Shown here piece after piece: positions 5,659-59,233 of a DNA stretch of 64,000 bases. A model generated the notes under the pieces. It saw only the letters and a program-made list of their open reading frames with translations, did not search any database and was not told the DNA's origin. Numbering within the stretch: the stretch's first letter is position 1; every line of letters begins with the position of its first letter. The DNA comes from Archangium sp. (lineage in GTDB: Bacteria; Myxococcota; Myxococcia; Myxococcales; Myxococcaceae). The stretch is from assembly GCA_047600485.1 (NCBI GenBank), contig JASGKS010000001.1, positions 6,592,259 through 6,656,258 of the forward strand, given 5' to 3'. Made by a program: the position numbers and the translations under genes.

Positions 5659-5769
5659 CGGGCCAGATTCGTAACGCACTGGTCCCATCGCGCAATCCAA
5701 CTGGTTGAGCCCCGCACAGACCGTCACTTCTGCGCTTGCGCTCGATCGACAGGCTTGAGGTTTTCGCGC

Positions 5770-14790: not shown

Positions 14791-14867
14791 GCGGGCGGCG
14801 TGCTTGTCACACGTGCGCATGGCTGATCAATCCCACGCGCGAAAAGCCCCGCGTTCGACGAAAACTC

Positions 14868-43886: not shown

Positions 43887-46163
43887 TTGATGCGACTTCT
43901 TCCTCTCCTCCTCGCGCTCTCTGCCTGCGGCGGCATCACCAACAAACTCTGCGGCGCGCCCGGCCAGCCGTGCTGCGCTTCGTCGACCTGCGACACCGGA
44001 GCGCTCTGCTCCGCGGCCGACCTCTGCGAAGCGTGCGGCGGCGAAACGCAGAAGTGCTGCGGCGATTCCTGCTCGGGAAACTTGAGCTGCATGAGCGGCA
44101 CCTGCGTCGCCGCCCTCTCGTGCACCACCACCTGCACGCTCGGCGCGCGTCGCTGCGCGAACAACGGCATCGAGACCTGCAGCTCCACCGGCGTCTGCCC
44201 CGAGTGGCTCAACACGCTCACCACCTGCCCGAGCGGCTCGCTGTGCATGAACGCCGGCTCCAACGCCGACTGCGTCGAGACCTGCCCCGGCGCGTGCACC
44301 GTCGACGCACAACTCTGCACCAACGAAGGCCTGCGCATCTGCGTCGCGAGCGGCGCCTGCCCCACGCTCAACGCGCTCACCGACGACACCGAAGCGCCCA
44401 TCTGCCTCACCGGCGGCTCCATCACGCCCGAGCTCACCTGGGAAAGCCCGACGCCCATCGGTCAGCGCTTCATCGACATCGCGGGAGAACTGCGCGGCAG
44501 CTACTGGCTCCTCGACGACCTCGGCAACATCGTCCACTACGCGCTCGGCCCGTGGGAATACGAGCTGCGCCCCACCGCGGGAAAACGCATGAAGCACCTC
44601 GCGTCGTGCGGGCAGGGCTCCATCCTCTACGCGGCCGGTGAAGGCGGCACCGTCTTCCACCGCTCCGGCGGAACGTGGAACGAAGAGAGCGTCGGCAGCA
44701 CCACGCTCCTCACCGACGTGGCGTGTGACTCGACGCGCGCGTTCGCCAGCGGCTCCGACGGCAAGGTCTACGTGCGCAGCGGCTCGACGTGGACCGGCTA
44801 CGCCACAGGCGTGAACGTGCCCTTCACCTCGGTGACCTCGCTCTTCTCACTGCAGCAAATCTTCCTCGGCGGCGAGAACGGGCTCATCGTGAAGTGCGAA
44901 GCGGCGACGCTCCCGCCGACGTGCACCACGGCGACGACCAACACCACGGTCACCATCAACGCGCTGTTCGGCGACACGTACACCAACACCGTCTACGCGG
45001 TCGGGCCCAACGGCACGCTGCTCGAAGGCCGCGGTGGAACGTGGACGCGCGGCAACCTCCCGAACGTGACGGGCAACCTGGTGGGCATCACCGCGTACAA
45101 CGACGGCATCGCGAGCATGAGCACCGCGGTGGCCATCGCCGACAACGGCACAGCCATCATCCGCCGCACGGACGCGGTGCAGGAAATCGTTCAGGTGCCC
45201 GACACGGGCCTCACCGCCGCGTGGGTACCGGCCGACGACACCGTCATCTTCACCGGCGACCACGGAGGCATCTGGTACCGCAACGGTCTCTTCACCTCGC
45301 GCCCCTTCTTCGCGCGCGGAGGACGACGGCCGCTCACGCAGAACCTCACCGCGGTGACGAGCATCGGCGGCGGGCGGCTCTTCGCGGTCGGCGAAAACGG
45401 CACGCGCGTGCGCCGGCAGAACGGCGTGTGGAGCGTCGACGCGCTCGGAGTGACCACCACGCAATCACTCCGCTCCATCGCCGCGCGCAATGCGGGCGAA
45501 ATCTACGCCGTCGGCGACGGCGGCACGGTGATGCTGCGCCGCTACGGCACGTGGGTCTTCGACGCGGTCGGCCTCACCATCGAGAACCTCTCGAGCGTGA
45601 TGCTCGACGACACGCGGCTGTGGGCGCTCGGCGAGTCGCACCTCTTCGAGAAGAACTTTGCGACGGGCATGTGGCGCTCCATCGCGCTGCCGCCCGCGTT
45701 CATGCCGCTGACGATGGCGCTCAAGAAGTCGGGCGGCGCCGCGCAGGAACTCGTGGTCGCTGGTGACCACTGCGCGACGTTCAGCTTCGGCCTCACCGAC
45801 GACAGCTTCACCGCGGGGCCGCCGTGCACGATGCGCTACCTGCTCACCTCGGCGGCGTTCGCGTCGAATGGAGATCTGCTGGTCGGCACCGACGAAGGCA
45901 CCATCTTGAAGCGCACCGGCACGACGATGAACTTCGAGAACGTGATGGGCGCGGTGCGACTCGAACCCTTCCTCGGCCTCATCGCGGACGGCTCGACGAT
46001 GTGGGCGGTCGGGACGACGGGCGCGCTCTACCGGCGTGTGGCGGGCAACTGGTCTGACGCGGCGCCCGACGTCACGACGGTCGATCTCACAGCCGGAGCC
46101 GTCGACGACGCGGACGGTCTCTTCCTCGTCGGAGCACACGGCGTCGTCCTCCGCCGCCCCTGA
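43887..46163 (+). CDS. Lipoprotein: N-terminal Cys-rich region plus beta-propeller-like repeats
   Basis: Lipobox (LALSAC|G), then repeated G-x-VY/GT...G.TW motifs. Confidence 0.65.
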   Translation: MMRLLPLLLALSACGGITNKLCGAPGQPCCASSTCDTGALCSAADLCEACGGETQKCCGDSCSGNLSCMSGTCVAALSCTTTCTLGARRCANNGIETCSSTGVCPEWLNTLTTCPSGSLCMNAGSNADCVETCPGACTVDAQLCTNEGLRICVASGACPTLNALTDDTEAPICLTGGSITPELTWESPTPIGQRFIDIAGELRGSYWLLDDLGNIVHYALGPWEYELRPTAGKRMKHLASCGQGSILYAAGEGGTVFHRSGGTWNEESVGSTTLLTDVACDSTRAFASGSDGKVYVRSGSTWTGYATGVNVPFTSVTSLFSLQQIFLGGENGLIVKCEAATLPPTCTTATTNTTVTINALFGDTYTNTVYAVGPNGTLLEGRGGTWTRGNLPNVTGNLVGITAYNDGIASMSTAVAIADNGTAIIRRTDAVQEIVQVPDTGLTAAWVPADDTVIFTGDHGGIWYRNGLFTSRPFFARGGRRPLTQNLTAVTSIGGGRLFAVGENGTRVRRQNGVWSVDALGVTTTQSLRSIAARNAGEIYAVGDGGTVMLRRYGTWVFDAVGLTIENLSSVMLDDTRLWALGESHLFEKNFATGMWRSIALPPAFMPLTMALKKSGGAAQELVVAGDHCATFSFGLTDDSFTAGPPCTMRYLLTSAAFASNGDLLVGTDEGTILKRTGTTMNFENVMGAVRLEPFLGLIADGSTMWAVGTTGALYRRVAGNWSDAAPDVTTVDLTAGAVDDADGLFLVGAHGVVLRRP

Positions 46164-46168
46164 CTCCG

Positions 46169-46199
46169 CGAAGCGGGGAGAGGGCCGGGGTGAGGGGCA
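46169..46199. repeat. Palindromic repeat (half copy); direct repeat of 47044-47071
   Basis: aagcggggagagggccggggtgagggg is identical at both sites. Confidence 0.75.
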
Positions 46200-46256
46200 T
46201 TCCCAAGCACAGCCAATGGTTTGCACACCACGTCGCAAGCCCGGAGTCAGGCCGGC

Positions 46257-47027
46257 ATGTCGATGCCGCCCCCACTTCCGCTCGAGCCCGGTGAGACCCT
46301 CGTGATGTCCGGAGGTCGCGGCTGGCACGCGTGGCTCTTCACCATCGTGCTGATGCCGATGCTGTGCGCCTTCGTTCCGCTCTTCGCATTGCCGTGGCTC
46401 TTCTCGGGCCGATACTGGCTCACGCAGCGCCGCCTCATCTTCAAGACGCCACTGGGCAAACCGCAGGTGATGTTGCTCAAGGAGCTGAAGAACCTCGAGG
46501 TGGTCGGCAAGCGCGCGACGCTCTCGCTGCAGCACCCGGGCGGCACAATCACCATGCGCTTCATCGAAGACTTCCACCGCGTGTGGGGCGCGATTCTGCT
46601 GCTCGCCGAGCTCCCGGTGCCCACGCAGCTCGGAGCGCCGCAGGTGCACTACCGCGTCGCACCCTCGACGTTGACGTTCCCCGGCGGCTTTCAGGCGGGC
46701 TACGGCGTGAGCTTCAACCGGCAGCTGGTGTTCTTGCCCAACGAGCGCCCGCGCAACACGGTCGCGGAAGGAGCGAAGATCGCCGGTCAGCTCGCGCTCG
46801 CGTTGGTCGGCGTGCACATGGCGCGCTACCAGGCGAAGTTGCCGTTCGACGTGTGGCTCGGGCTGTGGCGGCACCTCTCGACCGCGGAGTTCGACGCGCT
46901 GTTGTCGAAGACGGCGGCGCTGCGCGGCGGGCGCGTGTTGCCGCTCGAAAACCTCGAGCACGAATCACCGACCCTCTACCGCGCCGGAGAACTCAAGCTG
47001 CGAGCCGCCACTCCCCTGTTCAGCTAA
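46257..47027 (+). CDS. Hypothetical membrane protein
   Basis: Two TM helices near the N-terminus. Flanked by direct repeat copies. Confidence 0.5.
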   Translation: MSMPPPLPLEPGETLVMSGGRGWHAWLFTIVLMPMLCAFVPLFALPWLFSGRYWLTQRRLIFKTPLGKPQVMLLKELKNLEVVGKRATLSLQHPGGTITMRFIEDFHRVWGAILLLAELPVPTQLGAPQVHYRVAPSTLTFPGGFQAGYGVSFNRQLVFLPNERPRNTVAEGAKIAGQLALALVGVHMARYQAKLPFDVWLGLWRHLSTAEFDALLSKTAALRGGRVLPLENLEHESPTLYRAGELKLRAATPLFS

Positions 47028-47028
47028 C

Positions 47029-47072
47029 TCCCTCTCCCTGCAAAGCGGGGAGAGGGCCGGGGTGAGGGGCCG
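47029..47072. repeat. Palindromic repeat element copy
   Basis: ctccctctccctgcaaagcggggagagggccggggtgaggggcc. Confidence 0.8.
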
Positions 47073-47079
47073 GTAGACC

Positions 47080-47475
47080 TCAGGGCCGCGGACCCAACAA
47101 GTCCCACCTGTTCCCAGCGAAGTCGACGAACACCGCCACCCGCCCGTACTTCTCATCGCGCGGCTCCGTCGCGAACTTCACACCGTGCGCCCGCATCCGC
47201 TTCTCCGCCGCAGCAAAATCATCGACGCGCAGAAACAGCCCGACACGCCCGGCGAACTGCGCACCGACGACGTGCTCCTGATGTGCATCGGCCTTCGCGA
47301 GCAACAGCCCCGTCGCACCACCGCGCGGCCGCACCACGACCCACCGCTTCGCGCGACCGTCGTTGGTGAGTGACGGCACGTCTTCGATGAGCTCGAAGTC
47401 GAGCGCGTCGACGAAGAAGGCAATCGCCTCGTCGTAGTCGCGCACCACGAAGCTGACGAGGTCGAGCTGACTCAC
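47080..47475 (-). CDS. VOC/glyoxalase-bleomycin resistance family protein
   Basis: 131 aa with a typical VOC beta-alpha-beta pattern (VSFVVRDYDEAIAFFVDALDFELIED). Confidence 0.75.
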   Translation of the reverse strand: MSQLDLVSFVVRDYDEAIAFFVDALDFELIEDVPSLTNDGRAKRWVVVRPRGGATGLLLAKADAHQEHVVGAQFAGRVGLFLRVDDFAAAEKRMRAHGVKFATEPRDEKYGRVAVFVDFAGNRWDLLGPRP

Positions 47476-48068
47476 AACTCGGTGATGGTGGTGATGGGCC
47501 CGGCGAGCCCGCGATTTTCCCAGCTCGGGTACTTCATGCGCAGCCCGCGCGGCTCGAGCGAAATCTCCGCGCTCATCACCACCTGCAGCGGCGGCTTGGT
47601 GAGCTCCGCGAACTGTCCGCTCCAGCCCTTCGAGAAATACTTCGGCGGCTGGCCCTCGCGCGTCACCTGGTACACGACGGGGTTCGACGACGAGAGCGAC
47701 GCGAGCACCTGAATCTTCGCGGGCAGCTGCGACTCGAGGAACCGGCGATTCGGAGTGCCCGGCGTGAACACGTTATTCAACGCCACCTGCATGTCGCGCA
47801 CGCGCTGCTTGATGGTGCCCGCCACCAGCGCCTCGTTCTGCGGAGCGACGGTGCCCTTGAACGCCGTGCGCACCTTCGCCTGCGCGGCCTCGGGCGTCAG
47901 GCCATCGAAGGTCTTCTTGATGATGAGGTCATCGGCGGTCGGCGGGCGCCCGAGTTTCTTCGGCAGCGAGATGTCCGGAGTCGGCGCAGGCAAAGGCTTG
48001 GTGATGGGATCGATCCGACCGGGCGTGGTGGGACGTGTCACGACATCGATTCGAGAGACCATGGGCAC
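47472..48068 (-). CDS. Hypothetical protein
   Basis: ATGA overlap with the downstream VOC gene. Pro-rich N-terminus. Confidence 0.45.
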   Translation of the reverse strand: MPMVSRIDVVTRPTTPGRIDPITKPLPAPTPDISLPKKLGRPPTADDLIIKKTFDGLTPEAAQAKVRTAFKGTVAPQNEALVAGTIKQRVRDMQVALNNVFTPGTPNRRFLESQLPAKIQVLASLSSSNPVVYQVTREGQPPKYFSKGWSGQFAELTKPPLQVVMSAEISLEPRGLRMKYPSWENRGLAGPITTITEL

Positions 48069-48094
48069 TCCTTATTAATAGGTGTGTCGCGCGC

Positions 48095-49630
48095 TCAGAA
48101 CTTGAACCCGAAGCCGCCGGTGCCGCTCGGCCGGAACGCGACGCCGACTCCGCTGCCGGTGCCGTAGAGCGCGACGCCGGCTTCACCTTCGAGCACCACC
48201 ACGAACGGGCCACCGACGAGGAAGCGCAGACCGAAGCGCGGCGCGACGACTCCGGCGACGCTGGTGAGCAGGCCCGCCGTCGTCCCCGTCTGCTGGAGCA
48301 CGAGCGCGGGTCCGACTTCCGCTCCGACGCCGAGCCACACGGGACCGAAGCGCCACGAGTACCGCCAGCCGGCGCGCGCCTCGAGACCGGTCTCCGACAC
48401 GATTCCGCGCGACGCGTACGCGACGGCGACCGCGAAGCTCAACCCGGGACCCAGCCGCGGCTCGAACCCCAGCCGCCCCGCGAGCTGCGCGCCGATGCCG
48501 CCGATGGACGGAACGACTCCGGCCGAAACACCGAGCACGCGCTCGCTCGCCCAGTCGACCGAGTCCATCACCTGCGTCGCGGTGAGCGCTCCGCCCTTGC
48601 TCGCGACGTTGACCGACGACGAAATCGCCGAGAGTTCGTCCCACTTCACCTCGCGGCGGCCCCCTTCGGCGATGGCGATGCGGCCTCCGAAGCTCTGGCC
48701 CTGTTTGTAGACGCGCAGTCCATATTGTCCCGCGGGCACGGCGACCTCACGCGTGGCACCGGTCGGCACTTCGGCGATGACCTGGTCTCGCAGCACGTCG
48801 CTCACCACGGCGCGCTCGAAGCCGAGCGGCAACACCAGCTGCGCGGTCGCGCGTTGGAGCGTGCTCATCACCAGCTCGCCCTGCCCCGAGAGTTTGTAGT
48901 CGTACGTCGGGTGCTGCGCGCCGACGGGCATCAGCGTGGTGCGCGAGACGGTCTGGTCGTAGGCGTAGCGGTAGGCCTCGGCGAGCGTGACCTGCTTGTC
49001 GCCCGAGAGGTCGGCCACGCCGCGCAAACCAGACACGAAGTGGTGCGTGAAGATGCTGCCCAGCACCTCGGCCGACTCGAGCGCGGCTTCGTTCTCGGCA
49101 GACGAAGCGATGAACGCGTCGCCGGTGCTCTGCAGCGTGTCGGTGAGCTTGATGGTGAAGGGGTCGGCCTGCTTGCCGCCCTTCTCGCGAAAGCCGGCGC
49201 CGCTGCGGCACGCGTCGACGACGACCACGCGCACGTCACCGATGCCGGAGAGAATCGACTTGAGCCGCGTGAAGGGGAGCACCTCGCTGCCGAGCTCGAG
49301 CGACTCTCCGTCGGAGTGACCGGAGAAATAGAAGAGCACCACCACGCGATTCTCGGGCGCTGACTTGATGGCGTCGGCCTGCGCGCGGAGTTTGCCGAGC
49401 GCGCCTTCGAGTTCCTTCGCTGATTTGCCCTGCAGCAACTGCAGGCGGTCAGGAGCGACGTCGCCCAGCTCGAGCAGCACGCGCGCGAATTTTCCGGCGT
49501 CGGTCTCGGCGTAGCGCAGGGGAGGCATGGTGCCCGCTCCGGCGTTGTTGCCGACGACGACGGCGAGCCGAACGGTCTCGGCGTGAGCGAGCGACGCGCA
49601 GAGCAACGTGAGAGCGAGCAGGAACCGCAT
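48095..49630 (-). CDS. Caspase-like (peptidase C14) protease with C-terminal Gly-rich beta domain
   Basis: Signal peptide, His box FYFSGHS, Cys box VVVDACRSG, and a C-terminal Gly/aromatic-rich region ending GFGFKF (beta-barrel-like). Confidence 0.75.
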   Translation of the reverse strand: MRFLLALTLLCASLAHAETVRLAVVVGNNAGAGTMPPLRYAETDAGKFARVLLELGDVAPDRLQLLQGKSAKELEGALGKLRAQADAIKSAPENRVVVLFYFSGHSDGESLELGSEVLPFTRLKSILSGIGDVRVVVVDACRSGAGFREKGGKQADPFTIKLTDTLQSTGDAFIASSAENEAALESAEVLGSIFTHHFVSGLRGVADLSGDKQVTLAEAYRYAYDQTVSRTTLMPVGAQHPTYDYKLSGQGELVMSTLQRATAQLVLPLGFERAVVSDVLRDQVIAEVPTGATREVAVPAGQYGLRVYKQGQSFGGRIAIAEGGRREVKWDELSAISSSVNVASKGGALTATQVMDSVDWASERVLGVSAGVVPSIGGIGAQLAGRLGFEPRLGPGLSFAVAVAYASRGIVSETGLEARAGWRYSWRFGPVWLGVGAEVGPALVLQQTGTTAGLLTSVAGVVAPRFGLRFLVGGPFVVVLEGEAGVALYGTGSGVGVAFRPSGTGGFGFKF

Positions 49631-49694: not shown

Positions 49695-50366
49695 GTGGCA
49701 AGGTGGCAGGCCATGATTCGTCGTGCGTTGCAGCGTCTTCGGGAAGTGGGGCCACTGGAAGTGGCGCGTCGGGTGTCGGTGCGTGCGGAAGCCGCGGTGT
49801 GGAACCGGGTCTTCGTGGCGCAGACCGAAGGCGGGCCGTCGCCGGGCCCCGAGTTTCCGGAGTCCATCGCGTACGAGCCGTTGCCGTGGATGTTGGTGCG
49901 CCGGTCGATTGGAGCGCTGGAGCTGCAGCCGCACGACGTGTTCCTCGACTACGGCTGCGGCATGGGTCGAGCGTTGTTGATGGCGGCGCGTGCGGGGCCG
50001 CGGCGGGTCATCGGAGTGGACTTGATGGAGCCGCTGGTCGAGGCCGCGCGTCGCAACGCGGTGACGAGCCGCTCGCGCATCAAGTCGCCCATCGAAGTGC
50101 ACGCGGCGGACGCGATGACGTGGCAGGTGCCGGATGATGTGACGGCGGTGTACCTGTTCAACCCGTTCGTGGGGTCGGTGATGGCGGCGGTGCAGGCGCG
50201 GCTGCTCGAGTCGTTGAAGCGCAAGCCGCGCGCGGTGCGGGTGCTCTACGCGCGGGTGGCGAAGGAGCAGAACTTGTTCGCCGGGCTCGATTGGTTGCGC
50301 ATGGACCGCACGGTGGATGAGGGCGTGTTCCGTGATTTGCGGCTCGAGCTGTACGTCACGCGCTGA
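49695..50366 (+). CDS. Class I SAM-dependent methyltransferase
   Basis: Motif I LDYGCGMG and an acidic motif II. Confidence 0.7.
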   Translation: MARWQAMIRRALQRLREVGPLEVARRVSVRAEAAVWNRVFVAQTEGGPSPGPEFPESIAYEPLPWMLVRRSIGALELQPHDVFLDYGCGMGRALLMAARAGPRRVIGVDLMEPLVEAARRNAVTSRSRIKSPIEVHAADAMTWQVPDDVTAVYLFNPFVGSVMAAVQARLLESLKRKPRAVRVLYARVAKEQNLFAGLDWLRMDRTVDEGVFRDLRLELYVTR

Positions 50367-50389
50367 TCACCGGTTCGTTAGTTAACTAA

Positions 50390-51112
50390 CTAGCCTGCCA
50401 GCTGGCGCACGATCGCTGAATAGGCACGAATCTCCTCAGCAACCAACGAGCGACGATTGCGAAACCGGATCAAGATCTCTTTGATTGCTCGCGTTGCCGC
50501 TGGCGAACGATTCGCGACCTGCGTTGCGACGGCCCGCGCGTGACTCATCAACTGGTCCTCCTTGAGGACTGCATTGACTAAGCCAGCCTGAACGCCCTCC
50601 TCTGCCGTGAACCGACGCCCAGTGAGCAAGATCTCGGCACCGCGAAGAACTCCCATTCGCTCAAGCGCCAAGAACGATCCACCCATCCCAGGAATAATGC
50701 CAAGCGACAACTCCGGCTGCGAAAACCACGCTCCGTGTGCAGCGAAGACGAGATCTGACGCGAGCACCATTTCGCAACCACCGCCAACCGCCGGACCATT
50801 TACGGCGGCAATGAGCGGCACGGGCACTCTCTGAAGCTCACGCGCGAGTTGTTCAAAAGCCCGATGCGCATGAATCCATTCTTTGCTTGTCTGAGACGCC
50901 CGCTCGGATCGGTCGGCTCCAGAACAGAAGGCCCGGCCCTCGGCACTTAGGATCACAGCCCGTGCACTCCGGTCACGGCGCAGGCGGGATAGAAAACTGC
51001 ACACCGTCCGACACATCTGAACCGAGAGCGCGTTGCGAACGGAAGGCCGATTGAGTCTAATTTCTGCAACGCCCTCAGATGGCCAAGTCAGAATCGCGAG
51101 TTCGTTCGTCAT
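50390..51112 (-). CDS. Enoyl-CoA hydratase/isomerase (crotonase)-family protein
   Basis: Crotonase fold motifs (AAVNGPAVGGGCEM; FSQPELSLGIIPGMGG). Reduced GC. Confidence 0.85.
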   Translation of the reverse strand: MTNELAILTWPSEGVAEIRLNRPSVRNALSVQMCRTVCSFLSRLRRDRSARAVILSAEGRAFCSGADRSERASQTSKEWIHAHRAFEQLARELQRVPVPLIAAVNGPAVGGGCEMVLASDLVFAAHGAWFSQPELSLGIIPGMGGSFLALERMGVLRGAEILLTGRRFTAEEGVQAGLVNAVLKEDQLMSHARAVATQVANRSPAATRAIKEILIRFRNRRSLVAEEIRAYSAIVRQLAG

Positions 51113-51960
51113 TATCTTGCCCCAATCGCTAGCACGACAGCTCCAGCCAAAATCATAGTGGCGCCCAACGCGAGCGGTATTGAGGGCCGCTCTTTGAGCA
51201 AGAAGACACCTAAGACGACGTTGAGCAAGATGCTCGATCGCTTCAACGCGACAACGTAGCCTGTAGTTGCCTCAGGACGCTCAAGTGCCAAGACCATAAA
51301 AAGCAAGGATCCCGCTGCCGCAACTCCGACACTCAAAAGTGAAGGTGAAAAGACAGAAGACCGCCGAATTTCAATTCGCGCAAGAAAGATTGACGCAACT
51401 ACTAAACTAGCGACAGCCAAAAATCCCACCAAGCATCGACTTCGTGCGACTTCTTTCAATAGGAGCCCGTCGATGGCCCACATCATCGCGATGCCGATCC
51501 CCGCCCCCATCCATTGTCCACGTGGAATCTCGCGCTTTTCTTGCTGATGACGACCGAGCACAAATGTACCCAAAGCCACAACACCACATCCGATCGTCAG
51601 GGATGAGTCATAGAGCGATGTTCCGCGAAGGAGTTCAATCGTCACGACAAAGACAATGGATGTTCCAAGAAGTGGGGTCACGACAGAGACGCCGGCGTCG
51701 CGAATAGTTTTCGTAAGAAGATGATTCGAGGCTAACTCGAGGACTACATGCGCAACAAGGAGAAGCGGGAGTTCAGCGATATCTCGAAAAGACTCTTTCC
51801 GAGCAATCGCAACAACAAAGTAGACCAGTGAAGCCGTCGCAAACATCACACCATTAATTTGGCGTTGAGGAAAACCCTCGGACGCACGCTTATTCAAGCC
51901 ATTGCGAGCGGCGTCAAATACAGCACTTAGCACTGCCAACAAAACCCAAACAGACATCAC
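51112..51960 (-). CDS. EamA/DMT-superfamily transporter
   Basis: 10 TM helices with duplicated EamA halves. Low GC. Confidence 0.8.
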   Translation of the reverse strand: MMSVWVLLAVLSAVFDAARNGLNKRASEGFPQRQINGVMFATASLVYFVVAIARKESFRDIAELPLLLVAHVVLELASNHLLTKTIRDAGVSVVTPLLGTSIVFVVTIELLRGTSLYDSSLTIGCGVVALGTFVLGRHQQEKREIPRGQWMGAGIGIAMMWAIDGLLLKEVARSRCLVGFLAVASLVVASIFLARIEIRRSSVFSPSLLSVGVAAAGSLLFMVLALERPEATTGYVVALKRSSILLNVVLGVFLLKERPSIPLALGATMILAGAVVLAIGAR

Positions 51961-53045
51961 GCCACCGCGCGATGCAATGCATGAACAAGCGTCGGCCCGT
52001 CCAACTCTCCAAGGTAATCAATAATAATTCGCGTTGAGTCTCGAACGACCGAATGAGCGAGTTGCTTATCGAATGCGCGACCGGGACTACTCAAACGCCA
52101 AAGATATTCAATTCTCGAGGTCAGCGCTCCACCAAAGGTGAGCAGTTGACCCGGCACAATTCTAATCGAACGGCGGATCATCTGTTCGGCAAGCATCTGT
52201 GCCGCCTCCCGGTCAACCGGAAGCGAGTTGTTGTGCGCAAGAAGGAATGTCGCACCAGAGGGAATTCGAACCAAGTCGGAATTCTCGAACTCATTGCCAA
52301 TAGTGGTGGCGATTACCACTCCCCCGCGCTCAAGACACTCCGCCGAGAATTTCCCCGGAACTGACGGCAAAATATCAGGTTGCGCATCAGTAAACGCAAG
52401 ATCGGCGACAGCAAGTTCGACGCTCCGGCTGCGGAGCTCGCGAACGACGTCGGCACCGAGCGCTCCAGCGGCACCAACAACCACGGCTTGGCGAGTGTCT
52501 GGCGCCAATCTGTCTAGCGCGGCAATGACACCAGTCGCTGTGTACGATGACTTACCCCCGCACCCCCCTTTTTCTCGTGCAATGCCCAACACGTGCTCCG
52601 TGTGCCGGTGAAGTATGTCAGCAACACGGGCGAAGCGCCCAAAGTCCGGAGTGAGCTTCAGGATACCGCCCATTGCATTAAGTCTTGAGCCGATTGTTGC
52701 GAAGAGTTCATCGGCGATGGCTGTGAAACTTGGATTCGCCGGGTCTCTGAGAATCAAGTCAAACTCATTCGTCTTCGCACGAATTACGCACCTTCCACCT
52801 CCAACGCGAGAGCTATGCAGACCGGGCACCGAGGCAACTGACAATCGGCCCACTGCGATGTTGATTAGGCGGTTCTTGATTGCGCTCTCAAAAGAGGCGA
52901 GCGAGCGCACCGTCGCATCGGCCTCTTCGTCCGAGCATCTCGCATCAACAAGGCGCGTGCCACCATAGTGGTACACCACATCACTTCGTCCCTCATGAGC
53001 CAGCCATACGGAAGCGATGCGTGTGTCAAACATTTCTACTTCCAT
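51957..53045 (-). CDS. Glu/Leu/Phe/Val-dehydrogenase-family-like protein (atypical GGGR in place of GGGK)
   Basis: YGGTRLV ... EADATVRSLA ... RVGGGRCVI resembles the ELFV-DH N-domain, followed by a VVVGAAGALGADVV Rossmann fold. Confidence 0.55.
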   Translation of the reverse strand: MEVEMFDTRIASVWLAHEGRSDVVYHYGGTRLVDARCSDEEADATVRSLASFESAIKNRLINIAVGRLSVASVPGLHSSRVGGGRCVIRAKTNEFDLILRDPANPSFTAIADELFATIGSRLNAMGGILKLTPDFGRFARVADILHRHTEHVLGIAREKGGCGGKSSYTATGVIAALDRLAPDTRQAVVVGAAGALGADVVRELRSRSVELAVADLAFTDAQPDILPSVPGKFSAECLERGGVVIATTIGNEFENSDLVRIPSGATFLLAHNNSLPVDREAAQMLAEQMIRRSIRIVPGQLLTFGGALTSRIEYLWRLSSPGRAFDKQLAHSVVRDSTRIIIDYLGELDGPTLVHALHRAVA

Positions 53046-53776
53046 TCACTGCCTCCTTCAGAAATCGCGAGAAGCGCAGAGATGATTGCCCGACGAGCCC
53101 CTCGAAACGAGTCGATCGATCGAAGATATGTTCGTGCGCTCTCGTCCGCGGCATCATCGCTGACAATCTTTACACACGCAAAAGGAATGCCGAACCGAGA
53201 ACACGTCTGCGCAACGGCAGACGCCTCCATGTCGAGTGCAATTGCGTCCAATGAGATTCCCGCCCGAATGCTCTCACGGGCCGCAGTTGAAGCGACGAAC
53301 TTGTCGCCAGACAGGAGCAGTCCTCCGTACGAAATCGAGGCGACATTCGACAATGAAGACTTAACAATCTGCGCGAGCTTGATGTTTGCGCTAAACACAA
53401 GATCGCGATGATCGGACATTGCCTGATATTGAAGAGTGCGCTCTCCAGGGCGCGCCAGCCACGTTACGGAAGGAGAGATTCCGCCGAAGTCATGTTGGGC
53501 AAACGTCGTAGGAATCAGAATCGAGCCTACCTGGTGCTTTTCCGTGAGCGCCGCGCAGTATCCGAAATTCAGAACACATCGAAGATCAGAAGCCCCAGCC
53601 GCGAATGCGATGGCTGAGGCCGCTGCAACCTTGCCAACGCCGCTCAGCACAATGCACGACCGGGTCGGAATTGCATCTCGCTCGGGCGCGGTACGAAGAT
53701 CAACAACGCGAATCGATCCGGGCAGGTCCACCCCATCGAGTTCCTCGCGCATGGCCACCTGAATTATGGAGGTCAT
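53036..53776 (-). CDS. PNP_UDP-family nucleosidase (MTA/SAH-nucleosidase-like)
   Basis: ALDMEASAVAQTC...FACVKIVSD matches the MTAN EMEGAA...RxISD core. Confidence 0.7.
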   Translation of the reverse strand: MTSIIQVAMREELDGVDLPGSIRVVDLRTAPERDAIPTRSCIVLSGVGKVAAASAIAFAAGASDLRCVLNFGYCAALTEKHQVGSILIPTTFAQHDFGGISPSVTWLARPGERTLQYQAMSDHRDLVFSANIKLAQIVKSSLSNVASISYGGLLLSGDKFVASTAARESIRAGISLDAIALDMEASAVAQTCSRFGIPFACVKIVSDDAADESARTYLRSIDSFRGARRAIISALLAISEGGSEWK

Positions 53777-55890
53777 TGTTCAAATCTGAGAATCTCGGGC
53801 GGCAGGTCTTGCGCGACGCGCAGGCCGTACCGTTGTGCCGCCTTGATATTGACACCGCGAAGCGGCGAGTCGCATCGCAGAATCGGTATCTCATAAAGAG
53901 CCTTCTTGCCCATTAGCCATGGAACGACAATTTGCTCAGCAGCGCGACGTCCCGAGTCGATGTCGTTGTTCGCGACAAGCGCGACCGCCCCCCGCGTCAT
54001 GTCGGCCTCGTTACCTGCAACAAGCGCCACGGCAAGCGTGCGTGACAGTTGTGCAAAGTTGGCGTTGACGTAGTACCATCCAAACACGACGTCAATCTCG
54101 CGCGGCACAGCTTGAGCGTGTTCAATAGGAGTCACGGCGATGCCGGACTCATGAGAGAACTTGGCGATTCGATCGCGCACGATCACGTCTTGCGCGATTT
54201 GTGCATCATAAAGATACCCGAGTCGTGCATCAGGGAACGTTGTCGACAAGAAACGGAGCGCATTTTCAGGTGTCGCATAGGAGACGCCAGCGATGTTTCC
54301 GCGCCTCTTGTCGCCGTCCATGGACGAGACAAGCCCTGACGCTACAGGGTCGGTCACGCCAGCAAACACGATCGGCAGCTTGTCGCGATGTAATCGCAAT
54401 GCATCGACACTAACTTGAGTACCAATTGTGAAGAGGAGTGCTGGCGGTCTCTCAAACCGCTCGAGCAGTTCTCGGACGGCGCCTTGATTTGCGGCGAAGT
54501 CGCGGTCGCTGCTTCCTGGTGAGCCGATCGTGCGCTCGAAACGAGGTGCCAGTCCAGTGGGCGCCAGCAATTCGCGGAGACGGCTCTTGAACGCATCTTC
54601 GATCGTGCGTGCGTACTCTGCGTCTCCGTTGAGCACAACCGCAACATCGACAATCTTCGCCCCATCGTTCTTTGCGGGCTGGTCGGATCGCGCAGCTGCG
54701 ACCCCCGCGGCAAACACGATCAAGAATGGGACGAGAATCGTTAAAGATGCGGCAATCAGTATGCGAATCAGCCGGAAGCGATGCGGCCATTTCCAGCGCG
54801 CGACAGCTGCTTCACGAAGCGCGTTCACGCGATTTACGGCTTCGGCATACTCCGCGGCCGTCGGTTCTTTGTCTTTGAGAAGGGGCAGGCCGTGCGGTTC
54901 TAAGTGGAGAAAGCGCAAAACGGCAAGTCTGCCGGACTCCGCCATGAGTTCTTTATCCAACTGGCCAATCGAGAAGTCGACCGTTCCTATTGGGGCCGTG
55001 TTGATTCGAACAATGCAATGCCGGTTCGCCTCAATCGCAAGGTTCTCATCCTGCCCTAGAAATATTCTAAATACGTGTTTGAGAACGGTCGTCGCCGATA
55101 GCGTTGCATCTGACGGACGATCGGGCTTCGATGCATCGTGCAAATACAACCCGAGAACATTGGCGTGGGCCCATTCGCGGCGAGCTTGATCGAGTGCGAA
55201 GTTGGCAACAAGCCCACCGTCGAACAGTATGTTTTTTCCGACTACCTGTGGTTCAAAGAAACCCGGGATTGCGACGCTGCACCTTACGGCGTGCTCGACG
55301 TCGTCCTCAGGTGAACCGAAAAGGACGGTGTTCGGCGTGCCCGTGCTTGAGGCGACGACTAACGCCCCGTGTTTCAAGCTCCGGAACTTCGCCCCGAGGT
55401 AGTCATCCGGCTCAATTCGTTCACGGCCATTCGAATGCGGGCGCCAGCGCAATGCATGTTCGATAAAGCGACCAATCGGCTTCGTGCTGAAAGCGAATCC
55501 CCTGAAAAGAGGTACAAGGATTCTAAACCAAATGACTAACTCAAAAAAAAGATAGGCAATGGCGCGGAGCACGAGACGCCATCGAGGCGGTCGCGGTCTT
55601 TCACTCTCTCTCCATGGAGGTTGGGACCACTCCGGTTCCCAGCTTTCAACCAGAAAATCGGAGAATCGTTGCGCGTTAATGATTGCGGCTGTCGTCTTCG
55701 CATCGTAACCCATTGCTAGGACAATCGCCGTCATCGCACCTGCAGAGGTACCGGCAAATTGTTCGAAACGGACATCAACACGATTGGTCAGCTCCAGAAG
55801 TGCCCCAGCAAATGCGGCGCCTTTTACACCGCCACCATTGAACACAAGCCCAAACTTGGCTCCACGCTCGATCGTCGTTTCACGCTCCAC
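53773..55890 (-). CDS. Patatin-like phospholipase fused via TM helix to ABC-type substrate-binding-like (PF04392-like) domain
   Basis: GGGVKG oxyanion, GTSAG serine and DGG aspartate. TM helix LIRILIAASLTILVPFLIVFAAGV. The C-terminal PIVFAGVTDPVASGLVSSMD...GNIAGVS matches the ABC_sub_bind core. Confidence 0.8.
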   Translation of the reverse strand: MERETTIERGAKFGLVFNGGGVKGAAFAGALLELTNRVDVRFEQFAGTSAGAMTAIVLAMGYDAKTTAAIINAQRFSDFLVESWEPEWSQPPWRESERPRPPRWRLVLRAIAYLFFELVIWFRILVPLFRGFAFSTKPIGRFIEHALRWRPHSNGRERIEPDDYLGAKFRSLKHGALVVASSTGTPNTVLFGSPEDDVEHAVRCSVAIPGFFEPQVVGKNILFDGGLVANFALDQARREWAHANVLGLYLHDASKPDRPSDATLSATTVLKHVFRIFLGQDENLAIEANRHCIVRINTAPIGTVDFSIGQLDKELMAESGRLAVLRFLHLEPHGLPLLKDKEPTAAEYAEAVNRVNALREAAVARWKWPHRFRLIRILIAASLTILVPFLIVFAAGVAAARSDQPAKNDGAKIVDVAVVLNGDAEYARTIEDAFKSRLRELLAPTGLAPRFERTIGSPGSSDRDFAANQGAVRELLERFERPPALLFTIGTQVSVDALRLHRDKLPIVFAGVTDPVASGLVSSMDGDKRRGNIAGVSYATPENALRFLSTTFPDARLGYLYDAQIAQDVIVRDRIAKFSHESGIAVTPIEHAQAVPREIDVVFGWYYVNANFAQLSRTLAVALVAGNEADMTRGAVALVANNDIDSGRRAAEQIVVPWLMGKKALYEIPILRCDSPLRGVNIKAAQRYGLRVAQDLPPEILRFEQ

Positions 55891-56081
55891 AAGTCCCCCG
55901 GATTTCGCAGGCTACTGATTCTTCCCTCGTCAACACAATTGCGAAGTCGAGTCGCTTCCGAGATGTTGCGTTGGCGCTGAGGCAATTCGCGGAGCATCCC
56001 ACTTGAACGGAGGCGATGAGCTTACGTTGTCTCTAGCGTGCCGAAACAGCGGCAAGTTGCATTCGTGTTTCGACAAGACAC

Positions 56082-56843
56082 TCACGCGCGTACCCCAAGC
56101 GACGCCGCGTCAAGACCCTTCCAATTTCCGCGCGCCGCGTAGGGCACCAACCGCGTGAACAGCGACTCGGAAAAATGCCCGCCCTGCAGCGCCGCCTGCG
56201 CCGCAGCGTGATGCGCAGAGTCTCTCGCCCACCCCACGAGCTCCGCTTCCGAGCGCCACAGGGTGAAGGTGCACTGACGGAACACCGGCGCTTCGCCCAA
56301 CCCGATCGAGAGCAGGCACGCCTCGCTCCGCGCGATGGCTTCCTGCGCCTTCGGCGCGTGCTCCCAGAACTCCGTCGCCCGCGAAGGCTTGATGGAGCCG
56401 CGCGTCAGCGAAGCGATGACTCCGCCGCTCGGTGCAGGGACGCTCAGCGCAACCGGCTCCACGGAGTCCCACGCGCCACGGCTCGCGTACGCGCGCAGCT
56501 TCATCGTCAGCCAGCTGTTCCCCCGCGCGCGATACAGCGCGAGCTGCTCCGAGCTCTCGAGCCACGCATCGGCCGCCGCGTCGTCGTCGAACACCGCGAA
56601 CAACCCCTGGTGCGAAACGCTCGGCTTCAAACCAAACCCGCCCTCGTGACCCGAGCCGAGCACCTTGCGAAAACGCACTCCGGGCACGCGAGACAAGGGC
56701 CACCGCCCGAACATCAGGTTGCGGATGCCCGCCCACCGCGCGCCGGGCGCGAAGTCGACGATGGCGAGGACTGCGACTGAGCCGGGGGGCTGCACCGGGG
56801 CTCGCGTATCAGAGATGCGGGCTGCCCCCCCAACCAGGACCAC
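56082..56843 (-). CDS. Hypothetical protein
   Basis: 253-aa ORF. High GC returns here; the start is uncertain. Confidence 0.4.
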   Translation of the reverse strand: MVLVGGAARISDTRAPVQPPGSVAVLAIVDFAPGARWAGIRNLMFGRWPLSRVPGVRFRKVLGSGHEGGFGLKPSVSHQGLFAVFDDDAAADAWLESSEQLALYRARGNSWLTMKLRAYASRGAWDSVEPVALSVPAPSGGVIASLTRGSIKPSRATEFWEHAPKAQEAIARSEACLLSIGLGEAPVFRQCTFTLWRSEAELVGWARDSAHHAAAQAALQGGHFSESLFTRLVPYAARGNWKGLDAASLGVRA

Positions 56844-56952: not shown

Positions 56953-57561
56953 TCAATTCGGCAAGACAAGCTGCGAACCGTCTCGCAACCACACGCGCGT
57001 GCCCGCGGAGCTGCGCTCCACGCGCTCGGGAACTTCGAGCCATTGCTTCACTGCGCCCTCAGGCACGTCACGCCGCCACGCCGCATCGAGCTGCGCGGTG
57101 GTGTCGAACGTCAAATTCGCCAGCCGCCGTTCCACTTCGCCAGACTCGCCCATGCCCAGCACCATCGGGTCGAGCAGCAACCCCACCAGCGCCTCGTGGA
57201 GCGCTGCCCGCTCGCCCGCCGTCAGCTCCGACGCCGCCAACGCCACCCGCGCGCGCAACCGCTGGTCGAGCACCGGCCGCGGGCCCGCGAACTGCGTCAG
57301 CGCCGCCTCTCCGACAATCCAATCATCGACCCAACCGTGCGCCGTTCCATCGGTCACCGCGTCGTCTTCGGAGTCGAGGTAGCGCAACGCGCGCGCCAGA
57401 CCCAGTCGTGACGCGGGCGCGCGGTCGGGCTCGTCGAGCTGCGTCTTCAAGCGCAGCCGCAGCGCGCTCACTTCCGGCGGAGGCCTCTCGCTCGAACACG
57501 CGGAAGCAAACGCCATCGCGAACCCCACCACCACACCCCACCCCATCGCGCGCCGAGCCAT
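56953..57561 (-). CDS. Lipoprotein, function unknown
   Basis: Lipobox (FASAC|S). The ORF extension upstream of Met101 was rejected. Confidence 0.55.
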   Translation of the reverse strand: MARRAMGWGVVVGFAMAFASACSSERPPPEVSALRLRLKTQLDEPDRAPASRLGLARALRYLDSEDDAVTDGTAHGWVDDWIVGEAALTQFAGPRPVLDQRLRARVALAASELTAGERAALHEALVGLLLDPMVLGMGESGEVERRLANLTFDTTAQLDAAWRRDVPEGAVKQWLEVPERVERSSAGTRVWLRDGSQLVLPN

Positions 57562-57691
57562 GCGGCAACTCTCAGCAACGCGCGTGCCTCGTGACGTGCT
57601 CGGGCGAACTGTCCAATCGAGTGGACAGCACACACGCACCAGTCGCTCTCTGACGTGTGGCGCTTTCGTTGCACTTGAAATTCTCGTGGCG

Positions 57692-59233
57692 ATGCGCGCG
57701 CTCATCACCGTCGATCGGCTGGTACCTTCGCCGGTCGTGACCCATACAGATCGACTGAGGCTCGAGCGCACGTTGCTCGCTTCGCTCCTGAAGTTGACCC
57801 GGGAAGACGCAGACGAGAAGCAGGTGCGCAGCTGCCTGCAGCTCCTCGGCAGCGTCACCAAAGCGCGCCGCGTCTACCTCGAGGTCTACCAACTCGACGA
57901 AGACGAGAAGCCGCGGTGGCAGGTGAGTGAAGGCTTCTCCGATGACGAAGCCGACGCCGTGCACCAGCTCACCTCGCGCGGAATCGTCGCTGCGGCGCTG
58001 GCGTCGGGCGAAACGGTGCACACGCCCTTCGCGCTGCTCGACGACCGCTTCAAGGACCGCCCCAGCGTGCAGAGCCGTCGCCTCGAGGCCGTGCTCTGCG
58101 TGCCGGTCGGTGAGAACGGCGGCGTGCTGTATCTGGAAGGCGCTCCCGACGGAGGCCCGTTCCAACCCGAAGACGTCGAGCTGGTGATGGAAGTCGGAGC
58201 CGCGCTCGGCCCACTCCTCGAGCGTTTGTCGGAGCGCGCCGCGGCCCAGACGCCCGACTCCGACCCCACGCGCGCCTGGCGCGAACGGCTGCTCCTCACC
58301 GGAATGGTCGGCCGCTCGCCGCGCCTCGTCGAGGTCTTCAGCCAGGTCGAGCTCGCCGCTCCCAATCAGGTGCCGGTGCTCATCAGCGGAGAGACCGGCA
58401 CCGGCAAGACCCAGCTCGCGCGCGTCATTCACGACAACGGCCCGCGCCGCGCGTTTCCCTTCGTCGAGCTCAACTGCGCCAACTTCAACGAGGGGCTCAT
58501 CGAGGCCGAGCTGTTCGGCACCGTGCCCGGCGCGTTCACCGGAGCGACCAAGCGCCGCGGTCAGGTCGAGGCCGCGCACGGCGGCACGCTGTTCCTCGAC
58601 GAAATCGCTGAGCTGCCGCTGAGCGCGCAGGCGCGGTTGCTCCAGCTGCTGCAGAGCCAGCGCTTCTTCCCTGTCGGCAGCACGCAAGAGCAATCGGCCA
58701 ACGTGCGCTTCATGGCGGCGACCCACCAGCCGCTCGACAAGCTGATGGCCGAGGGCAAGTTCCGCGAAGACCTCTTCTTCCGCTTGAACGTGGTCACCAT
58801 TCGCATGCCCTCGCTGCGAGAGCGCAGCGGCGACGTGCCTGACCTGGTGGTGGAGCTGCTTCGCGTCATCTCAGCCGAGGTCGGCTGCGCGCCGCTGCCG
58901 CCGTCACACGGGCTGCTGCGCTCGTGCCGCACGCTCGACCTGCCGGGCAACGTGCGCGGGCTCAAGTCGGTGCTCACCGTCGCGTTGCTGCGCGCGAATC
59001 AAGAAGGCGCGGCGCAGGTCGAGACCCACCACCTCACTCCGGGCAGCACCGACGGCCCGGCGCAGACCTTCCACGGGCTGACGCGCGCGTTTCAAAGAGA
59101 CCTGCTGCAGCGCGAGCTCGATTCCACCGGGTGGAACGTTTCCGAAGTGGCGCGGCGCATCGATTTGAGCCGGGCCCATCTCTACAACCTGATTCGTGAA
59201 CTTCAGCTGAGGAGCCCCACCAAGGAGAAGTGA
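57692..59233 (+). CDS. Sigma-54-dependent enhancer-binding protein (GAF-like N-domain + AAA+ + Fis HTH)
   Basis: GETGTGKT Walker A, GAFTGA sigma54-contact motif, ESELFG-like motif, and a C-terminal HTH (VSEVARRIDLSRAHLYNLIRE). Confidence 0.85.
   Translation: MRALITVDRLVPSPVVTHTDRLRLERTLLASLLKLTREDADEKQVRSCLQLLGSVTKARRVYLEVYQLDEDEKPRWQVSEGFSDDEADAVHQLTSRGIVAAALASGETVHTPFALLDDRFKDRPSVQSRRLEAVLCVPVGENGGVLYLEGAPDGGPFQPEDVELVMEVGAALGPLLERLSERAAAQTPDSDPTRAWRERLLLTGMVGRSPRLVEVFSQVELAAPNQVPVLISGETGTGKTQLARVIHDNGPRRAFPFVELNCANFNEGLIEAELFGTVPGAFTGATKRRGQVEAAHGGTLFLDEIAELPLSAQARLLQLLQSQRFFPVGSTQEQSANVRFMAATHQPLDKLMAEGKFREDLFFRLNVVTIRMPSLRERSGDVPDLVVELLRVISAEVGCAPLPPSHGLLRSCRTLDLPGNVRGLKSVLTVALLRANQEGAAQVETHHLTPGSTDGPAQTFHGLTRAFQRDLLQRELDSTGWNVSEVARRIDLSRAHLYNLIRELQLRSPTKEK

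Follow-up and report, generated by a model that had tools for sequence, protein, structure and literature searches.

A horizontally acquired, low-GC five-gene operon in an Archangium genome built on an ELFV-like family and a solute-binding–patatin membrane protein

What does a compact group of five foreign-looking genes do in a myxobacterial genome? This question is raised by a segment of Archangium sp. (assembly GCA_047600485.1, contig JASGKS010000001.1, positions 6,592,259 to 6,656,258 of the forward strand), a stretch of 64,000 nt that is referred to here as the window and whose own coordinates are used throughout. The source is a metagenome-assembled genome (MAG), and the segment, hereafter the island, lies inside a single 9.4-Mb contig. 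A first-pass annotation of the window had described a drop in guanine-plus-cytosine (GC) content over 50,370–56,080 and interpreted the five genes beneath it as one horizontally acquired functional cassette. Our analysis shows that the operon is real, horizontally acquired, conserved but rare, and that its function is unassigned to any known pathway or defence system. It is a mobile accessory metabolic operon built on a family related in fold to the Glu/Leu/Phe/Val (ELFV) dehydrogenases and on a membrane protein that joins a solute-binding protein (SBP) domain to a patatin lipase domain.

The composition of the region was recomputed in sliding windows of GC content and tetranucleotide frequencies, as had been proposed; it was not uniform, and both measures set the island apart. 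GC content in 400-nt windows was 0.51–0.60 across 50,400–56,000 and 0.65–0.74 on either side; the left flank remained at 0.65–0.74 until approximately 50,200, and the right flank was again at 0.655–0.71 by 56,000–56,600. The 1-kb windows outside the island had a mean GC of 0.678 (standard deviation 0.022). The reported drop over 50,370–56,080 was therefore reproduced, from approximately 0.65–0.72 to 0.51–0.60, and GC at third codon positions (GC3) fell from 0.84–0.91 to 0.50–0.60 in exactly five genes (0.60, 0.50, 0.55, 0.57 and 0.59). Every flanking gene tested had a GC3 of 0.84–0.91, including the methyltransferase gene at 49695–50366 (0.87) and the ABM-like open reading frame (ORF) at 56082–56843 (0.84). 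The changes in GC and GC3 coincided exactly with the limits of the genes. The tetranucleotide distance to the remainder of the window peaked at 0.47–0.54 in the island against a typical background of 0.15–0.20. The genes of the island and the region upstream of them are as follows:

53773–55890, minus strand: gene 1, 705 aa, patatin domain, transmembrane helix and PF04392 domain (Pfam, hydropathy, motifs)
53036–53776, minus strand: gene 2, 246 aa, methylthioadenosine/S-adenosylhomocysteine (MTA/SAH)-nucleosidase-like protein (Pfam PNP_UDP_1)
51957–53045, minus strand: gene 3, 362 aa, ELFV-fold protein (profile search, AlphaFold2, Foldseek, hhalign)
51112–51960, minus strand: gene 4, 282 aa, EamA/drug–metabolite transporter (DMT)-type permease (Pfam EamA, hydropathy)
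50390–51112, minus strand: gene 5, 240 aa, enoyl-CoA hydratase (Pfam ECH_1, PDB matches)
55891–56081, minus strand: intergenic region of 191 nt upstream of gene 1, GC 0.54, the presumed promoter region of the operon

The family first proposed for each gene proved correct, by Pfam for four of them and by remote ELFV similarity for gene 3. All five genes lie on the minus strand, and the four junctions overlap by 1–10 nt at the positions first listed, in order ATGA (4 nt), ATGGAAGTAG (10 nt), GTGA (4 nt) and TAATG (1 nt). The five island genes are translationally coupled. A Shine–Dalgarno-like GGGGGA precedes the GTG start of gene 1. The 191-nt region upstream of gene 1 contained neither a sigma-70 consensus match nor a sigma-54 match, and the operon promoter is thus only presumed to lie there; consensus promoters and terminators were not above shuffle expectation.

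Is this gene set a chance mix, or is it found elsewhere? Protein and profile searches combined with a comparison of gene order, another check that had been suggested at the outset, recovered partial or near-complete sets in other loci, and the set is thus not a chance mix. The overlapping metagenomic contigs L050 and L051 (99.8% identical over 1,516 nt) carry four of the five window genes, which read ELFV-like gene, patatin–SBP gene, nucleosidase gene and EamA gene before the sequence ends; this order differs from that of the window. L044 has the ELFV-like and patatin–SBP genes in divergent orientation, with a nucleosidase-like gene after the latter. In L043, the ELFV-like gene lies 14 nt upstream of the patatin–SBP gene. 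All four patatin–SBP genes of full architecture adjoin an ELFV-like gene. The closest homologue of gene 3, P0002 (53% identity), lies on a contig that reads ELFV-like gene, EamA gene and enoyl-CoA hydratase (ECH) gene, which is the window order; the same series is present in Nocardia sp. CNY236 (L028), and the ELFV-like–EamA pair is present in four further actinobacterial loci. A crude neighbour-joining tree groups the window gene 3 protein with P0002 and the L044 copy, and P0003 and P0035 also appear in it as sisters of the window protein. The cassette-bearing contigs elsewhere have GC contents of 0.42, 0.58 and 0.51–0.52. With the same genes found together in unrelated contigs over this range (0.42–0.58), the interpretation as one functional cassette stands. 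The view that the gene mix is not a recognised pathway also stands: PADLOC and NCBIfam returned only sub-threshold generic matches, and a literature search gave no match. The literature likewise yielded no match for this gene combination, nor any ELFV-like enzyme from gene clusters of this kind that had been characterised.

The same evidence bears on the explanation that the island is an artefact, namely, a chimera of the MAG assembly or a chance juxtaposition. The source is indeed a MAG, and no insertion marks in the form of an integrase, a tRNA or repeats were found. However, host-type sequence runs on from either end of the island within one 9.4-Mb contig, each boundary lies in a short intergenic spacer, the island genes overlap each other, and the same gene sets occur in independent assemblies. 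An artefact is therefore highly improbable.

What gene 3 encodes was established by remote comparison. The protein had no Pfam family at E ≤ 0.01, and hence no match to ELFV_dehydrog or ELFV_dehydrog_N; PADLOC gave no match, NCBIfam gave no meaningful match, and an exact-sequence look-up was without result. A profile of 30 homologues reached the leucine dehydrogenase (LeuDH) and phenylalanine dehydrogenase (PheDH) entries of PDB at E 1e-4. The structure prediction and active-site inspection recommended for this protein were performed, and the AlphaFold2 model was confident (predicted local distance difference test (pLDDT) score of 93). Foldseek matched the model to PheDH, LeuDH and tryptophan dehydrogenase (E approximately 1e-13, TM-scores 0.70–0.73); the fold is PheDH/LeuDH-like, with GGGR in place of GGGK. 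An hhalign comparison with LeuDH (1LEH) gave a probability of 85% with the motifs aligned: YGGTR with LGGAR, K57–N58 with K68–N69, D134 (TPDFG) with D115 (AEDVG), and GGGR85 with GGGK80. K57–N58 and D134 are invariant in the gene 3 family, as are the Rossmann motif G191xxGxxG and D215, and gene 3 keeps N272 of the second domain, which serves the substrate carboxylate alongside K57 and N58. The catalytic lysine (Lys80 of LeuDH) is an arginine in this family; R85 is invariant in all 30 sequences, and so are C86 and a GGCGGKSS loop at aa 160. An insertion of approximately 20 residues precedes R85 relative to LeuDH, and the hydrophobic side-chain pocket of LeuDH shows polar replacements by invariant residues (L40 by Y27, A113 by T132, V291 by A307 and V294 by S310). 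Identity to leucine, phenylalanine and tryptophan dehydrogenases is 15–19%.

These results bear out the early description of gene 3 as ELFV-dehydrogenase-like but atypical, since the ELFV fold and the carboxylate and dinucleotide residues are kept and the catalytic lysine is an arginine. The exchange suggests that hydride moves to or from an imine and that the usual deamination step, which depends on water, does not take place. Gene 3 resembles the ELFV dehydrogenases 1LEH, 1C1D and 5B37 in its two-domain fold, GGxR motif, carboxylate-binding Lys–Asn, catalytic Asp, second-domain Asn, and GxxGxxG with an acidic residue, and differs from them in its context, which is specialised metabolism rather than amino-acid catabolism. 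In an exhaustive profile search of 1.84 billion representatives of clusters at 50% identity, 95 were recovered at E ≤ 1e-10, and a clear gap separated this family from the canonical ELFV enzymes, which first appeared near E 1e-6; the family is a separate and hitherto undescribed branch within the ELFV fold. If confirmed, this would be a compact and widely scattered family of amino-acid-dehydrogenase fold that has no Pfam model and carries arginine in place of the catalytic lysine.

What the family does elsewhere was approached through its neighbours. The domain counts cover 27 non-redundant ELFV-like loci and are given as the number of loci with each neighbouring domain:

AMP-binding, 7 loci
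Condensation, 5 loci
PP-binding, 5 loci
Glyoxalase, 5 loci
Asn_synthase, 4 loci
DAO, 3 loci
methyltransferases, 3 loci
TauD, 2 loci
Asp_decarbox, 2 loci

Members of the family lie in non-ribosomal peptide synthetase (NRPS), polyketide synthase (PKS) and hydrazine-type clusters of Streptomyces, cyanobacteria, Chloroflexi, Acidobacteria and rumen Firmicutes. Individual contexts include a Ruminococcus PKS/NRPS cluster, a Scytonema gene that adjoins a P450, loci with adenylation–peptidyl carrier protein (A-PCP) and AsnB-like genes or with AsnB-like and PKS genes, one locus with NicX and ATP-grasp, one with a sulfotransferase neighbour, and one with PhyH and a very large gene of 2,090 aa that is contig-cut and unannotated. 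Judged from these neighbourhoods, the ELFV-like family is probably a specialised-metabolism enzyme that acts at the level of amino or oxo acids on one conserved substrate, and its reaction probably supplies an unusual building block.

Three further observations concern the family at large. In Microcystis (L006/L007), the ELFV-like gene (L007, 9601–10779) lies between a glyoxalase-fold gene and genes for a Lys/Orn N-monooxygenase, a PanD-like protein and a cupin–MetRS protein. Table 2 of PMC11705231 gives this cupin–MetRS locus for a published hydrazine synthetase, an enzyme that uses serine (bioRxiv 10.1101/2025.08.22.671884). The Microcystis ELFV-like protein may be an unrecognised step of an N–N pathway. 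Four family members (P0141, P0154, P0157 and P0165) are fusions, with a C-terminal methyltransferase, an N-terminal D-2-hydroxyacid dehydrogenase (twice), or a Ser/Thr kinase–NB-ARC (STAND) protein in which the ELFV-like domain is C-terminal. Rickettsia/Rickettsiales MAGs (L033, L038 and L039) encode distant homologues (approximately 29–35% identity) in which the ELFV-like protein contains a large insertion; the ORFs are of 551–560 aa in L033 and L039, and the neighbouring genes encode a hybrid histidine kinase and, at one of the loci, an M20 peptidase.

This distribution raises the possibility that the operon merely supplies a non-proteinogenic amino acid for a natural product built elsewhere in the genome, with the patatin–SBP protein as an unrelated passenger or lipid-remodelling enzyme. 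Most other ELFV-like genes are embedded in NRPS/PKS clusters beside A-PCP, condensation and AsnB-like genes, as such a role would predict. However, no NRPS/PKS gene was present among the ORFs scanned around the island, and the pairing with EamA suggests that the product enters or leaves the cell as a free molecule. A passenger effect is ruled out by the linkage of patatin–SBP to the ELFV-like gene in four of four cases despite its extreme rarity. We accordingly give precursor supply very little credence.

The passenger in that explanation, gene 1, is the second foundation of the operon. Its patatin domain (aa 15–236; Pfam Patatin, 89.6 bits, above the cut-off) has its motifs intact, namely, the Gly-rich loop G19GGVKG, G47TSAG with Ser49, and D224GG, and the same motifs are present in the homologues of L043, L044 and L045. 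A juxtamembrane basic motif, RWKWPHRFR, at aa 365 is followed by one strong transmembrane helix at approximately aa 375–400. The basic flank N-terminal to this sole strong helix is conserved in all gene 1 homologues; under the positive-inside rule, it predicts a cytoplasmic patatin domain and a periplasmic binding domain. The C-terminal domain (approximately aa 410–705) matched PF04392, ABC_sub_bind (Pfam span 482–692, 36.6 bits against a cut-off of 25.9), and the NCBIfam TrpX SBP model below its cut-off (E 1e-12). Its PDB sequence matches were 6HNI, 3LFT and 3LKV, and the closest solved relatives are CD0873, VC_1101 and SP1069, with which it has a TDPVxxGLV motif in common. CD0873, SP1069 and VC_1101 bind Tyr, Trp and Phe with a common amino/carboxylate binding mode (PMC6816091). 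Fold-search matches of the ectodomain were consistent with PF04392 at TM-scores of just 0.31–0.35, which serve as a consistency check only, and the remote fold matches of this low-confidence model include receptor ectodomains.

Gene 1 was also sought in other genomes. Among 5.8 billion proteins, the patatin–transmembrane module was found in three others, and two of these have the SBP domain as well; a metagenome scan added the copy in L050/L051, and four copies of full architecture are known in all. The third of these proteins comes from L045 (4890–6980), where the patatin–transmembrane homologue (44% identity over the first 56%) has a different, Cys-rich C-terminal ectodomain without a Pfam match and its gene adjoins rve-type transposase and trypsin-like ORFs. 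The patatin–transmembrane module may be a scaffold that accepts varied outside domains. We know of no earlier description of an SBP–patatin fusion, and a literature search was likewise without match; an outside solute-binding domain, a single transmembrane helix and an inside patatin lipase form an architecture that is new to our knowledge.

Known proteins offer partial parallels. The natriuretic peptide receptors, the amino-terminal domains of GABA-B and ionotropic glutamate receptors (iGluR) and BvgS-type kinases likewise place a periplasmic-binding fold (type I) outside, a membrane span, and an enzyme or signalling domain inside; the output of gene 1 is a phospholipase, whereas theirs is a cyclase, kinase or channel. 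The PF04392 binding proteins of ABC transporters (TrpX; CD0873, VC_1101 and SP1069) are lipid-anchored or free, whereas the gene 1 domain is fused to a transmembrane helix and an enzyme. Gene 1 was considered as an ordinary ABC-transporter SBP and rejected as such: it has the PF04392 domain, but no ABC permease or ATPase genes are present in the operon or the scanned flanks.

The remaining three genes were assigned by family searches. Gene 2 matched Pfam PNP_UDP_1 (81.5 bits, above the cut-off) and fell below every equivalog cut-off of the NCBIfam models for MTA/SAH nucleosidase (MTAN; 99.6 bits against 169 for PRK05584, and 62.8 against 73.8); HpnG and futalosine hydrolase models matched as well. 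Comparison with MTANs of PDB gave E 1e-16, with DMEAS (aa 182) and VSDDA (aa 205) aligned to the MEA and SD motifs, and E12 (AMREE) is presumably the equivalent of the catalytic Glu12 in the numbering of the E. coli enzyme, matched by eye. Homologues of gene 2 lie directly downstream of the patatin–SBP gene in L044 and L051. Gene 4 matched Pfam EamA in two stretches (58 bits), with 9–10 transmembrane segments by hydropathy. An EamA gene stands directly after the ELFV-like gene on the P0002 contig and in L028, L001/L009, L008, L012 and L013, and after the nucleosidase-like gene in L051. When the five proteins were searched by tblastn in 39 ELFV-like loci, the EamA genes escaped detection because they are too divergent; a small custom hidden Markov model recovered them.

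Gene 5 matched Pfam ECH_1 with 185.9 bits and the PDB structures of EchA8 and mitochondrial ECH with E approximately 2e-37; both catalytic glutamates, E114 (GGGCE) and E134 (QPE), are present and aligned with solved ECH. Its homologues follow the ELFV-like and EamA genes on the P0002 contig and in Nocardia L028. The hint that this crotonase might be of the RpfF type was not borne out, since the best NCBIfam and PDB matches were EchA19/EchA8/PaaF-type hydratases with the standard two-glutamate site; no RpfF model was among the best 25 of the 74 NCBIfam matches, and no rpf-like neighbours occurred among the island and scanned flanking ORFs. Synthesis of diffusible signal factor (DSF) was rejected on these grounds, the partner enzymes being absent and the crotonase having a standard hydratase site. 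Methionine salvage, recycling of autoinducer-2 (AI-2) or N-acyl-homoserine lactones (AHL), and carbapenem-type CarB chemistry were rejected because their defining partner enzymes are absent. The DSF (rpfF/rpfC) cassettes and the AHL (luxI/luxR) cassettes with Pfs/MTAN resemble the island in that one or more synthesis enzymes are encoded alongside a sensor and an enzyme of the crotonase fold or MTAN type; unlike them, the island has no acyl-ACP-using or S-adenosylmethionine (SAM)-using synthase, its crotonase is a standard hydratase, and its sensor is neither a kinase nor a transcription factor.

How might these five proteins work together? We tentatively favour, while judging it somewhat short of probable, a model in which the cassette makes, exports and senses an amino-acid-like metabolite with the phospholipase as output. 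The amino-acid theme rests on the solved PF04392 relatives, which bind aromatic amino acids, on the ELFV fold, and on the EamA family, which includes amino-acid exporters. The ELFV-like enzyme would catalyse NAD(P)(H)-dependent interconversion of an amino, imino or 2-oxo acid and yield an amino-acid-like product, and the nucleosidase-like and enoyl-CoA hydratase enzymes would perform accessory or tailoring steps, dispensable since other versions of the cassette lack them. The EamA permease would move the product across the membrane, with export likelier than import. In gene 1, the periplasmic PF04392 domain would then bind the product or a related amino acid and, via the single transmembrane helix, control the cytoplasmic patatin, such that cleavage of membrane lipids is the output. 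If confirmed, the strict linkage of patatin–SBP to the ELFV-like family would give a testable ligand hypothesis. A bolder version, which we consider doubtful, holds that gene 1 is the first bacterial receptor in which a periplasmic SBP directly gates a cytoplasmic patatin, that the operon supplies the ligand by imine-level ELFV chemistry dependent on the Lys-to-Arg exchange, and that the whole is a mobile autocrine or quorum-type module for lipid signalling or self-lysis.

Several points weigh against the model of synthesis, export and sensing. Where the aromatic-amino-acid binders have a conserved G(V/T)SD motif, each of the four fusion proteins has GV(S/A)Y, and the ligand may therefore differ from Tyr, Phe or Trp. 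The AlphaFold2 model of the ectodomain, built from three sequences, was poor (pLDDT 59.6). No EamA gene was found in the sequence available for L043 and L044, and the patatin–SBP/ELFV-like pair is thus not always accompanied by export. Neither a CoA ligase nor a source of acyl-CoA accompanies the hydratase in the cassette, and an enzyme that uses SAM, which would explain an MTA/SAH nucleosidase, is likewise absent. Most ELFV-like genes adjoin neither a patatin nor an SBP gene, and sensing is thus not intrinsic to the family; in the kinase–NB-ARC fusion, the ELFV-like domain may itself be a sensor rather than an enzyme. Chemistry, transport direction, ligand identity and the coupling of ectodomain to lipase are steps that we infer from the observed anatomy, motifs and gene linkage.

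The direction of transport separates the favoured model from one of uptake, sensing and catabolism, in which EamA imports an amino-acid-like or nucleoside-amino-acid-like compound, the three enzymes degrade it and the SBP ectodomain senses it. The linkage data are the same for both. An MTA/SAH-type nucleosidase together with an amino-acid-dehydrogenase-like enzyme would suit the breakdown of an adenosyl-amino acid, the two-gene ELFV-like–EamA unit fits an importer with a first catabolic enzyme equally well, and some DMT/EamA proteins import, for example the rickettsial SAM transporter. However, most characterised bacterial EamA-type proteins export, the ELFV-like neighbourhoods are biosynthetic (NRPS, PKS and tailoring enzymes), and one would hardly expect nutrient sensing to act through a phospholipase. 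Uptake and catabolism is thus an unlikely account of the operon.

Defence against phage was weighed because of the lipase. An anti-phage, abortive-infection or toxin cassette would have the patatin and the PNP-family nucleosidase kill the cell while the other genes sense or regulate. Patatin and PNP-superfamily proteins are known effector types, weak matches were obtained to PADLOC effectors and to NCBIfam models of phospholipases of the cyclic-oligonucleotide-based antiphage signalling system (CBASS) and other anti-phage systems, and the cassette has a patchy distribution that reflects horizontal transfer. The island also lies near a caspase-like protease and a kinase–STAND gene, other copies lie near a conjugation gene or transposase, and the ELFV-like domain is found fused to kinase–NB-ARC. 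However, the PADLOC and NCBIfam matches cover the generic N-terminal patatin motif only and are far below the cut-offs; the island genes include neither a cyclase, a nuclease or a helicase nor any other known sensor partner; defence systems do not typically contain a periplasmic solute-binding sensor, a permease or an enoyl-CoA hydratase; the ELFV-like family is overwhelmingly found in natural-product clusters; and the viral and plasmid collections contained no cassette copies. The genomic context favours small-molecule metabolism over defence, and we regard a defence role as improbable.

CBASS in particular was tested and rejected: model NF041079 scored 24.5 bits against a cut-off of 200, the PADLOC effector matches span aa 15–70 only, and no cyclase is present in the island or flanking ORFs. 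The patatin of gene 1 resembles the CBASS effector CapV in its intact Gly-rich loop, GxSxG and DGG and in being probably ligand-controlled. CapV is soluble and activated by a cytoplasmic cyclic nucleotide from a neighbouring cyclase, whereas gene 1 is membrane-anchored and fused to a periplasmic SBP domain, with no cyclase nearby.

How the operon reached this genome can be judged from its surroundings. On the left of the island lie a methyltransferase gene and then a gene for a caspase-like protease, which belongs to a block encoding a 758-aa protein, a 198-aa protein and the caspase-like protein (43887–49630). On the right lie the ABM-like ORF, a GAF–sigma54 activator (57560–59233, plus strand) and a Ser/Thr kinase–nSTAND1–FGE-sulfatase protein (60443–63481). 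The suggested comparison with sister strains had to rely on more distant genomes: the clusters that hold the window's proteins contain one sequence each, and the nearest database relatives have 70–82% protein identity at the flanking caspase gene. Related myxobacterial contigs, with 70–77% identity at the caspase protein, keep the 758-aa/198-aa/caspase block and have nothing in common with the window rightward of the caspase gene; the two best long-contig relatives share nothing beyond this gene and so provide no clean empty site. The nearest homologues of the island genes are found on mid-GC metagenomic contigs and in other phyla. In L044, a gene for a TrwB/TraD/TraG-type type IV secretion coupling protein (5391–7676) lies two genes downstream of the patatin–SBP/nucleosidase pair, which puts this copy of the cassette on or beside a conjugative element. 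Plasmid and viral collections contained no ELFV-like homologue and one weak SBP-domain match only.

The island was further compared with a classical, integrase-borne genomic island. Its composition is that of such an element, and the rest of the signature is missing. As first noted, no tRNA was found in a scan of the whole 64-kb window and no integrase among the ORFs scanned within approximately 6 kb of the island; flanking direct or inverted repeats were also absent. A classical island was therefore rejected. The proposal of horizontal acquisition nevertheless gained support from foreign composition, spread across phyla, the conjugation-gene neighbour of one copy and the break of synteny at the caspase gene, and on this sequence-based evidence the island is best read as a recently acquired, horizontally mobile operon. 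If confirmed, it would be a clean example of a small cassette that crossed phyla into a myxobacterium without recognisable integration apparatus.

The left boundary contains the following feature:

50378–50389, no strand: perfect 12-nt palindrome TTAGTTAACTAA, within an imperfect 24-nt palindrome at 50372–50395

A palindrome at this boundary had been reported at 50382–50393; its existence was confirmed, and its actual position is 4 nt further left. It sits in the 23-nt spacer that separates the convergent stop codons of the methyltransferase (TGA, 50364–50366) and the crotonase (TAG, 50390–50392). The palindrome alone is statistically unremarkable, and the right island boundary has no counterpart of it.

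Other features of the window were recorded in passing. Three sigma-54 −24/−12 matches with one mismatch lie around the start of the GAF–sigma54 activator gene (57384–57398, minus strand; 57575–57589, minus strand; 57658–57672, plus strand); the total of such matches in the window is not above shuffle expectation. A second tetranucleotide anomaly is present at approximately 13–18 kb, with a distance of 0.28–0.38. In this region, an ORF of 599 aa (13021–14820, minus strand) contains a 21-nt tandem repeat in 13 copies (array at 13238–13512, local GC 0.77), which together with shorter arrays of 18- and 27-nt repeats nearby accounts for the anomaly. A minor GC dip to 0.60–0.62 in 1-kb windows at approximately 33,750–34,500 is the sole other stretch of the window below 0.62.

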